11,459 bases of DNA, taken from positions 1-11,459 of the IMG/VR virus record IMGVR_UViG_2690316286_000019; one strand, 5' to 3'. Shown piece after piece: positions 9,492-10,997 of this stretch. Position 1 is the stretch's first letter, and the number at the start of each line of letters is the position of its first letter. The position numbers and the translations under genes were made by a program. Origin of the DNA: a virus. Lineage: Duplodnaviria > Heunggongvirae > Uroviricota > Caudoviricetes. The notes below the pieces were generated by a model that did not search any database, was not told the origin of the DNA, and was given only the letters and a program-made list of their open reading frames with translations.

Positions 9492-9619
9492 GTTAACCAG
9501 TTAACAATTAACGCCGGAATAAGGGATTTTCCTTACTGTTTTAACTGTTCCGCGTGCGCTGAGCCGCATTCACCGCATCACAAAATTCACTTTAAAAAGG
9601 GCGGACATCAGCCAGCAAT
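9492..9619. repeat. 128-bp element, copy A; exact copy at 10661-10788; begins with GTTAACcaGTTAACaaTTAAC
   Basis: Identical to 10661-10788 over 128 bp; followed by a partly similar, diverging leader and a small gene about 215 bp downstream. Confidence 0.9.
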
Positions 9620-9834
9620 GAAACTGATGCCGCCAAAGGTACCAATCAACATGGAGTGTTGTGGCGTGGTTGTCACTTAAGCGTATGGTCAACCTGACAA
9701 CCCGGTGTCCTCAACGGGGAAGGAATAACTCCGCCATACTTACCGCCGCGTCATTTCGCGTTGTGTGCCTGCTTTTAACCACGTCAGGCGAGGTGGTATC
9801 CTTCTTATCCCGAATAACCAAGAAGGAAATCTAT

Positions 9835-9880
9835 ATGACTAAAGAAGAATTTGTCTCTTATATTTTTGATAAAACGGTTG
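9835..9880 (+). pseudogene. 5' fragment of a small gene (MTKEEFVSYIFDKTV...) interrupted by the IS1 left end
   Basis: AAGGAA Shine-Dalgarno and ATG at 9835 (aagaaggaaatctatATG); the reading frame runs straight into the IS1 inverted repeat at 9881. Confidence 0.35.
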
Positions 9881-9935
9881 GGTGATGCTGCCAACTTACT
9901 GATTTAGTGTATGATGGTGTTTTTGAGGTGCTCCA

Positions 9936-10211
9936 GTGGCTTCTGTTTCTATCAGCTGTCCCTCCTGTTCAGCTACTGACGGGGTGGTGCGTAACGGCAA
10001 AAGCACTGCCGGACATCAGCGCTATCTCTGCTCTCACTGCCGTAAAACATGGCAACTGCAGTTCACTTACACCGCTTCTCAACCCGGTACGCACCAGAAA
10101 ATCATTGATATGGCCATGAATGGCGTTGGATGCCGGGCAACTGCACGCATTATGGGCGTTGGCCTCAACACGATTTTACGTCACTTAAAAAACTCAGGCC
10201 GCAGTCGGTAA
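9936..10211 (+). CDS. insA: IS1 InsA (transposition inhibitor / N-terminal part of transposase)
   Basis: [91 protein letters not shown] matches IS1 InsA as I remember it. Confidence 0.9.
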
Positions 10212-10633
10212 CCTCGCGCATACAGCCGGGCAGTGACGTCATCGTCTGCGCGGAAATGGACGAACAGTGGGGCTATGTCGGGGCTAAATCGCGCCAGCGC
10301 TGGCTGTTTTACGCGTATGACAGTCTCCGGAAGACGGTTGTTGCGCACGTATTCGGTGAACGCACTATGGCGACGCTGGGGCGTCTTATGAGCCTGCTGT
10401 CACCCTTTGACGTGGTGATATGGATGACGGATGGCTGGCCGCTGTATGAATCCCGCCTGAAGGGAAAGCTGCACGTAATCAGCAAGCGATATACGCAGCG
10501 AATTGAGCGGCATAACCTGAATCTGAGGCAGCACCTGGCACGGCTGGGACGGAAGTCGCTGTCGTTCTCAAAATCGGTGGAGCTGCATGACAAAGTCATC
10601 GGGCATTATCTGAACATAAAACACTATCAATAA
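10130..10633 (+). CDS. insB: IS1 InsB reading frame (expressed as InsAB' transposase by -1 frameshift)
   Basis: ORF ...[131 protein letters not shown], in the -1 frame relative to insA, with the A6C slippery site inside the overlap. Confidence 0.85.
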
Positions 10634-10638
10634 GTTGG

Positions 10639-10659
10639 NNNNNNNNNNNNNNNNNNNNN
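10639..10659. other. Assembly gap (21 N) at the IS1 right end
   Basis: Run of N characters. Confidence 1.
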
Positions 10660-10660
10660 G

Positions 10661-10788
10661 GTTAACCAGTTAACAATTAACGCCGGAATAAGGGATTTTC
10701 CTTACTGTTTTAACTGTTCCGCGTGCGCTGAGCCGCATTCACCGCATCACAAAATTCACTTTAAAAAGGGCGGACATCAGCCAGCAAT
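10661..10788. repeat. 128-bp element, copy B (identical to 9492-9619), starting one base after the gap
   Basis: Exact 128-bp identity with copy A; the downstream leader is similar to copy A's but diverged. Confidence 0.9.
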
Positions 10789-10997
10789 TAAACCGATGCC
10801 GCCAACTGGTACTTCACACAGCAATGTCGTTATTTACAACCGGAGGCGCACTCCCACCATTTAAATTTAACAGACAAGACCGACTCTTTATGGATACCGG
10901 AAATGCGCCTTCGTGTTGTGCCCGGTTTTATTTCACCACCTCCGGGCTTTGGTGGTATCTTTACTGAAGTTCTCACACAACCAGTAAGGAAATGAAT

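Follow-up and report, generated by a model that had tools for sequence, protein, structure and literature searches.

A 128-nt direct repeat in a Shigella sonnei prophage scaffold, very probably a product of chimeric assembly at paralogous dicF modules

We analysed a stretch of 11,459 nucleotides (nt) from a virus record of the Caudoviricetes (IMGVR_UViG_2690316286_000019; hereafter 'the window'), in which two identical 128-nt sequences, at 9492–9619 and 10661–10788, flank an IS1 element and a run of undetermined bases. With a probability of about 0.88, the two copies represent a single stretch of a Shigella sonnei prophage that was written twice by a chimeric short-read assembly. The repeat is very probably true of the assembly, not of the genome. 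Judged from sequence comparison, the 128 nt comprise, on the minus strand, the final 21 nt of a DicF-family small RNA (sRNA) gene and the greater part of the structured spacer that follows it.

The repeat and the two probable source loci of the scaffold

Comparison of the window with itself revealed the copies to be identical at 128 of 128 positions—far above chance—confirming the exact direct repeats that a sequence-only reading of the same DNA had noticed. When the alignment is extended to 145 nt, identity amounts to 99% (mismatches at repeat positions 129 and 134), and the sequences are diverged beyond. The same reading had offered two explanations, namely that the tandem cassettes are real or that paralogous loci were joined in a chimeric scaffold. 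The features on which the choice turns belong to two modules, named here after their small plus-strand genes A and B (L numbers denote loci used for comparison):

9492–9619, minus strand: copy 1 of the repeat, matching copy 2 exactly (sub-threshold Rfam matches to DicF and STnc100; syntenic-locus alignment)
9550–9619: crossover zone of 70 nt, identical in both source loci and the only stretch that both modules share exactly
9599–9647, minus strand: DicF-family sRNA allele A, of the Qin-like module (Rfam RF00039, 38.8 bits; syntenic BL21 locus, 72.5 bits)
9620–10638: foreign segment from a Qin-like prophage, with the 5' part of DicF allele A, leader A, truncated gene A and IS1
9835–9885, plus strand: gene A, cut after codon 15 by IS1; 66 amino acids (aa) when intact, phrog_34441, full length in BL21
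9881–10638, plus strand: IS1, 758 nt, with InsA and InsB open reading frames (ORFs); IS1 Pfam domains in L028–L037
10639–10660: gap and first contig base, that is, 21 N followed by G at 10660, where every natural locus has C
10661–10788, minus strand: copy 2 of the repeat, probably the same DNA written again at the start of the next contig (L043 overlap)
10768–10818, minus strand: DicF-family sRNA allele B, of the gene B module (Rfam RF00039, 28.6 bits; syntenic CS6L locus, 55 bits)
10998–11288, plus strand: gene B, 96 aa, YmfI-like, phrog_8894, with a predicted ferredoxin-like fold

The window is 100% identical to contig CXCS01000049.1 of GCA_001260675.1 and is therefore a draft scaffold, its end coinciding with the contig/scaffold end. 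An exact-protein look-up with the 646-aa RecE fragment encoded in the window matched this one contig only. In addition to the 21 N at 10639–10659, single Ns occur at 614, 3849 and 8804. Copy 2 starts at the second base of the contig after the 21-N gap, and the IS1 element is 10 nt short of its canonical right end. Taken together, the gap and single Ns, the position of copy 2 at a contig start and the short IS1 point to an assembly problem. The limits of the repeat suggest the same: leftward homology continues in every other locus examined, so that the left edge of copy 2 is a contig edge and not an element edge. The repeat is thus not delimited by natural ends: its left boundary coincides with a contig start, and the homology beyond it in the other loci includes the 3' arm of the spacer's closing stem (9472–9450), outside the 128 nt.

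Two reference records that are far more contiguous than the scaffold, CP032523.1 (L040; 5.03 Mb) and UGZB01000001.1 (L043; 4.96 Mb), were reached through the exact 96-aa gene B product. Window positions 8805–9619 (815 nt) correspond to positions 5977–6791 of L043 with zero differences, and likewise show none to L040. On the other side of the gap, positions 10661–11459 (799 nt) correspond to L043 positions 6664–7462, again with zero differences, and show none to L040 either, base 10660 alone deviating. The ranges matched by these two segments in L043 and L040 overlap by exactly 128 nt; both genomes therefore hold one copy, in the order dicB–rha–C4–isrK–spacer–DicF–gene B. In these closely related finished genomes, in other words, the flanks are contiguous and the repeated sequence is single-copy.

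The segment between the copies maps to another locus. Loci L028–L031 were reached through an exact 74-aa ORF spanning the junction of truncated gene A with IS1 (geneA'::IS1), and window positions 9550–10638 are identical to L028 with zero differences. In L028–L031, this segment lies in a different, Qin-like prophage, adjoining ynfEFGH/dmsD-type genes, and IS1 is a simple insertion in gene A, followed by a 121-aa gene, DUF1391, ParE/PaaA2 and a CI-like repressor. In draft assemblies, the gene A module forms a 1.5–1.9 kb contig with IS1 on both sides (at least 20 samples), and in the protein collection the 74-aa ORF is named solely from S. sonnei. What the two more contiguous genome records hold is thus one copy, with the other module in another prophage; of the two explanations offered, the chimeric scaffold joining paralogous loci agrees with the single copy in L043 and L040 and with the match of the intervening segment to L028.

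The point of the switch can be narrowed down. The last difference from L028 falls at 9549 and the first difference from L043 at 9620; left of 9549, the spacer in L028 is of another variant, distinguished by a substitution and an insertion of 24 nt. These match limits mark the contig at 8805–10638 as a chimera that leaves the gene B module and enters the gene A module within 9550–9619. We propose that a short-read contig running from rha to the spacer would have crossed over within these 70 nt, which are identical in the paralogous Qin-like module, and would have continued through DicF allele A, leader A, the IS1-disrupted gene A and IS1. The scaffold would then resume with the true continuation, a contig starting 128 nt before the point at which the modules diverge.

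Alternative arrangements

Several points weigh against a chimeric origin, or against the sRNA assignment that accompanies it. The L040 and L043 records stem from isolates other than that of the window, and the comparison is one of assembled records, not of reads. The evidence for the two modules, both named from S. sonnei, comes from different genome records rather than from separate places within one complete record. The assembler and scaffolder are undocumented, and a single N presumably denotes a join made by a paired-end scaffolder. Both DicF alleles in the window fall below the RF00039 gathering score (38.8 and 28.6 versus 48 bits; the gathering scores for STnc100, isrK and C4 are 47, 50 and 45 bits, respectively), and the stem of the spacer shows no real covariation (term −0.17; 18 variants, the sequences being too conserved). 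With the syntenic loci scoring 72.5 and 55 bits, we take the window copies to be divergent alleles at that same position and do not count them among the curated members of the family.

Reference-guided scaffolding was considered as the cause and dropped once the source assembly had been found; the pattern of single Ns presumably fits a paired-end scaffolder better.

The arrangement might alternatively be a true one in the isolate, with recombination between prophage modules or IS1 copies having set DicF allele A, truncated gene A and IS1 beside a second spacer, DicF allele B and gene B. Shigella genomes are rich in IS1 and rearranged among isolates, the surroundings of the gene B module differ between L040 and L043, copy 2 comes after a gap that itself comes after IS1, and the first contig base at 10660 (G versus the natural C) could mark a true breakpoint. 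However, the first 58 nt of copy 2 represent the L043-type spacer variant, as do those of copy 1, so the genome would need to contain the parental and the recombinant junction together, that is, a duplication. Moreover, in the genomes with the geneA'::IS1 junction, IS1 is a simple insertion beyond which the neighbourhood of gene A continues, and the same scaffold shows another clear butt-join of paralogous contigs (N at 8804). A pattern search of species-representative genomes for the IS1 right end joined to the element came back empty, which is uninformative alone, few Shigella apparently being included. We consider a true recombinant improbable.

A further option is recent gene conversion between modules at distant loci, in which case both copies would be real and their juxtaposition alone artificial. 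Modules do swap segments—the contig at 8805–10638 combines L004-like, unique and L028-like stretches in a mosaic—and several dicF modules occur per genome (median of two places). The gene A module of S. sonnei, however, has the other spacer variant, with its 24-nt insertion and substitution; the modules therefore share 70 exact nt rather than 128. One locus written twice fully accounts for the 128-nt identity, and gene conversion appears very improbable in comparison.

With respect to tandem cassettes, the proposal was that of a 128-nt promoter or operator repeated before exchangeable small genes, in the manner of an integron-like array. The leaders of genes A and B are indeed homologous, with a ribosome-binding site common up to the start codon, and the same slot holds different genes in different prophages. 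A search of other genomes for the element, suggested along with the original observation, found it in 4,349 of 5,426 complete Escherichia coli genomes, at a median of two places per genome. It is single per module, as in every locus inspected it occurs once per prophage module, with dicB, kilR or rha on one side and early-left genes and a CI-like repressor on the other, while the neighbouring slot gene varies. The unique parts of units A and B were adjacent in none of the 5,426 genomes, and none of 47 other loci contained two cores, each having one. No two head-to-tail units were therefore seen in any genome or locus examined, L040 and L043 with their one copy and the IS1 module in another prophage included. 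The joined rha-to-spacer (9003–9619) and gene B (10789–11459) stretches reached 93.9% identity at most in complete E. coli genomes. The geneA'::IS1 junction was found in none of them (0 of 5,426), a result that is uninformative alone, the set apparently containing few Shigella. The position and content of the 128 nt also disagree with a cassette promoter: a distance of more than 200 nt separates them from the start codons downstream, conservation does not stop at their edge but carries on into the minus-strand operon in the direction of dicB, kilR or rha, they contain the 3' end and terminator of a minus-strand sRNA, and neither a recombinase nor attC-like sites are involved. We therefore regard tandem cassettes as scarcely credible.

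The apparent cassette pair is thus, in all likelihood, a false lead and a by-product of the short-read assembly of a Shigella genome rich in insertion sequences (ISs) and prophages. As such the finding is ordinary, and the underlying biology is known in outline, with dicF modules in several prophages per genome and mosaic phage genomes around them.

A DicF-family sRNA within an early-left operon

Read on the minus strand, copy 1 runs from the 3' end of the DicF-family gene (9619–9599) through a T-run into the spacer. Terminator-like hairpins at 9631–9604 (allele A) and 10800–10773 (allele B) are each followed by CGCCCTTTTT, the configuration of a Rho-independent terminator. Annotated loci place the sRNA gene within the early-left operons of lambdoid prophages, with dicB or a kil-type gene following downstream. 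Downstream of it, the window contains the following minus-strand features:

9450–9593, minus strand: structured spacer after DicF, with a multi-branch fold in which a long closing stem surrounds small hairpins (z = −5.3)
9458–9587, minus strand: STnc100-like sequence (Rfam, 33.7 bits, below the gathering score of 47)
9411–9383, minus strand: promoter-like site TTGAAA-17-TATAGT (10 of 12 positions in a promoter scan), directly before isrK
9300–9376, minus strand: isrK (Rfam, 64.8 bits, above the gathering score of 50)
9188–9275, minus strand: C4 antisense RNA (Rfam, 79 bits, above the gathering score of 45), upstream of rha
8805–9130, minus strand: 5' part of rha (antirepressor-type), assigned to the gene B module and bordered by a probable mis-join at the single N (8804)

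In the minimum-free-energy fold of the spacer, the closing stem is formed by AAAGUGAAUUUUGUGAUGCGGUG (5' arm, 9593–9571) pairing with CACCGCAUCAACAAAGUUCACUU (3' arm, 9472–9450). It is retained in 18 sequence variants, in which changes are wobble-compatible only. DicF has been described in a 53-nt, terminator-ended form and a 72-nt form ended by RNase III (PMC5069750), and in K-12 both RNase E and RNase III are documented to take part in freeing it from a polycistronic transcript (PMC5069750, PMC10448788). Several dicF copies exist in different prophages of E. coli and Shigella, and the processing of DicF has been studied (PMC5069750, PMC10448788). Based on the predicted fold, we infer that the long spacer stem may serve as the RNase III processing site of DicF.

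The loops of the DicF alleles read UUUCAUUGCUGG or UUUAAUUGCUGG instead of UUUUACUCCGUG. Folding of full-length sRNA–ftsZ duplexes did not discriminate between alleles, and pairing was predicted over a restricted sequence range instead. This gave −15.9 and −17.2 kcal/mol for the alleles in the window versus −19.6 and −21.3 kcal/mol for the K-12-type and CT18-type alleles, respectively, with 18% and 14% of shuffles pairing at least as well with the ftsZ Shine–Dalgarno sequence as the two window alleles. The alleles in the window may, according to these predictions, have targets other than ftsZ.

To the left of the repeat lies a lambdoid prophage integrated next to yebY, with the minus-strand early-left genes int, xis, an AAA ATPase gene, gam, recE, ydaE and rha, the start codon of the last lying at 9130, after C4. 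Positions 9188–9411 appear, from their sequence matches, to constitute an isrK/C4/antirepressor-type unit nested in this early-left operon. The following sequence of events is conceivable for the region, of which the first three steps have been shown in the literature for the K-12 homologue and are what we infer here. The minus strand would be read as part of a lambdoid early-left operon that is kept off by a CI-like repressor; the DicF-family sRNA would be cut out of the operon transcript; and its 3' end would arise either through its own terminator hairpin or through cleavage of the long spacer stem by RNase III. An internal promoter would drive isrK, C4 and the antirepressor-type gene rha. 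Genes A and B, on the plus strand in what is the sieB slot of other phages, would be convergent with and antisense to the early-left transcript, each probably having its own promoter in the leader.

The slot beside dicF, further joins and known counterparts

The slot gene is oriented opposite to the surrounding operon and its content varies between related phages, as is typical of a moron. It holds gene A (66 aa) in BL21 and phage mEp460; gene B in S. Typhi CT18, many prophages at yebY and S. sonnei; and elsewhere sieB (phage vB_EcoS-666R9), rac10 (Rac-SA53), a 116-aa hypothetical gene, or nothing. Its surroundings in the window comprise:

9756–9834, plus strand: leader A, with the block TTCGCGTTGTG, interleaved GCCTG/CAGGC and CCAC/GTGG repeats, then TGGTATCCT and the ribosome-binding site AAGGAAAT
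10905–10997, plus strand: leader B, with the same block, GCCCGG/CCGGGC and CACCAC/GTGGTG, then TGGTATCTT and the ribosome-binding site; precedes sieB or rac10 in other phages
11265–11459, minus strand: 3' part of a convergent 67-aa early-left gene, cut by the scaffold end (start converted from the L043 gene call; gene calls in L039–L048)

The homologous yet diverged leaders, their hairpins and their shared ribosome-binding contexts had all been recognized in the sequence-only reading and were recovered here. While the middles of the leaders cannot be aligned, homology is evident over the final ~110 nt upstream of the start codons, up to AAGGAAAT-NN-AT-ATG; the hairpins are CCACGTCaggcGAGGTGG at 9779–9796 and CACCAcctccgggcttTGGTG at 10934–10954, and the ribosome-binding contexts AAGGAAATctatATG, ending at 9837, and AAGGAAATgaatATG, ending at 11000. 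Genes A, B and rac10 have a common leader sequence right up to the start codon, and leader B matches the sequence ahead of sieB at 90.7% identity. The conserved block consists of two interleaved inverted repeats (GCCYG../..CRGGC and CACCAC/GTGGTG), which are also found in L025 and L026; between the alleles, one of them differs by a double change from T-A to C-G and an added pair. After the inverted repeats, ~35 nt before the ribosome-binding site, follows a TGGTAT(C/A)(T/C)T motif, and inspection by eye suggested an extended −10-like element at this distance (TGGTATCTT, TGGTATCCT or TGGTATACT). A consensus promoter scan returned no promoter in either leader, Rfam had no match in the conserved block, and a literature search for the transcription start of sieB/kilR in Rac yielded nothing usable.

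The idea of a conserved regulatory region with a variable payload accordingly holds in a limited sense: it applies between prophages, where a homologous leader precedes a variable slot, and not to a tandem array, nor is the 128-nt repeat the leader. The conserved leader is real and found at separate loci, irrespective of how the assembly is judged. That the ~60-nt leader might be a portable regulatory element—an RNA pseudoknot or operator that would switch on the resident, lysogen-expressed gene, coupled to antisense transcription of the dicF operon—is a speculative and rather doubtful proposition. The modest interest that remains attaches to this leader and to the roles of the small genes in the sieB slot.

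As for the payloads, the two downstream genes are unrelated, as the sequence-only reading had stated; they are assigned to phrog_34441 (gene A) and phrog_8894 (gene B). Neither had a significant Pfam match, a PADLOC match or a sequence-profile match in the PDB, and Pfam, PADLOC and NCBIfam searches placed gene A in no family outside PHROGs. Close homologues of gene B are named DUF2622 by NCBI. Against the YmfI model (NCBIfam NF051477), gene B scored 52.9 bits over its full length (E = 4e-14), below the curated cut-off of 140 bits, which marks it as a putative distant relative of YmfI, not an equivalog. A fold search with gene B gave generic ferredoxin-like matches only (best E = 7.5e-3) and no specific structural match. 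In S. Typhi CT18-type loci, one A-to-G change removes the stop codon of a 47-aa leader ORF, resulting in an in-frame fusion to gene B and a 154-aa ORF (also P0031); in the window (10824–11288), the two are separate (loci compared: L002, L007, L041, L042, L045 and L046).

The repeat is accompanied by further irregularities of the scaffold. The N at 8804 is flanked by a 198-nt overlap (8606–8803 and 8805–9002; 95% identity); the sequence to its left is 99.15% identical to L004, and that to its right has zero differences from L043. From this pattern, the N appears to mark a second mis-join, inside rha, and the apparent frameshift and duplication of rha would be products of the assembly. An ipaH ORF (521–1765, minus strand) is cut short ~45 nt past the single N at 614, where sequence of the yebY/ryeA-ryeB flank takes over, and the RyeA match beside this N (463–1765 region) scores 118 bits versus 179 bits in L004. 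The N at 614 may represent another collapsed-repeat join, in the conserved 3' region of ipaH. The ~237 nt after the N at 3849 (3849–4085) have no counterpart in the otherwise 99%-identical L004 prophage. Further Rfam matches in the window (1894–2076, 4140–4318 and 463–602) comprise CssrB with 151.6 bits, the RalA antitoxin RNA with 207 bits and, at the prophage attachment side, SraC/RyeA together with SdsR/RyeB. In the reference genomes, the gene B module adjoins ttcA/dbpA in L040 and a gam/recE arm in L043, behind IS3-family copies both times, which suggests that ISs have rearranged prophage remnants differently in different isolates. With at least two probable mis-joins within 2 kb of scaffold, gene content and pseudogene calls are untrustworthy here; this concerns the break in rha, the module order and, perhaps, the truncation of ipaH.

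Among known systems, the closest counterpart of the repeated sequence is the dicBF operon of Qin (ydfA-ydfB-ydfC-dicF-dicB) and its paralogues. Both occupy the same position, between early-left genes next to a CI-like repressor (DUF1391/ydfA type) and dicB, kilR or rha, and share a DicF-family sRNA with a terminator hairpin, a conserved downstream spacer that matches the reported RNase III processing (PMC5069750) and the occurrence of several copies per genome in different prophages (PMC5069750). The alleles in the window differ from Qin in their loop sequence and 5' end and in their sub-gathering Rfam scores. In addition, the spacer is followed by isrK–C4–rha and not by dicB directly, and dicF is separated from the early-left genes by a plus-strand gene.

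That plus-strand position corresponds to the sieB position of Rac-type prophages, sieB being a superinfection-exclusion gene that is convergent with the early-left genes and located next to kilR: genes A and B occupy the same slot and strand as sieB of vB_EcoS-666R9. They are, however, unrelated to SieB and to each other, and sieB differs in using its own ribosome-binding site further downstream. The left neighbour of the repeat resembles the isrK/C4/antirepressor modules of Gifsy and P1 type, with isrK and C4 above their Rfam thresholds and a Rha-family gene immediately downstream. The module is not part of the repeat finding; as the neighbour of the repeat, it shows the direction of transcription of the region.

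The layout as a whole finds its counterpart in the collapsed-repeat chimeras of short-read, IS-rich Shigella drafts. As in those, a contig ends at repeat edges, the crossover lies within a short exact repeat, paralogous contigs are butt-joined by N, and IS1 stands at a contig end. No distinctive difference sets the scaffold apart from them, and it presents itself as an ordinary case of its kind.

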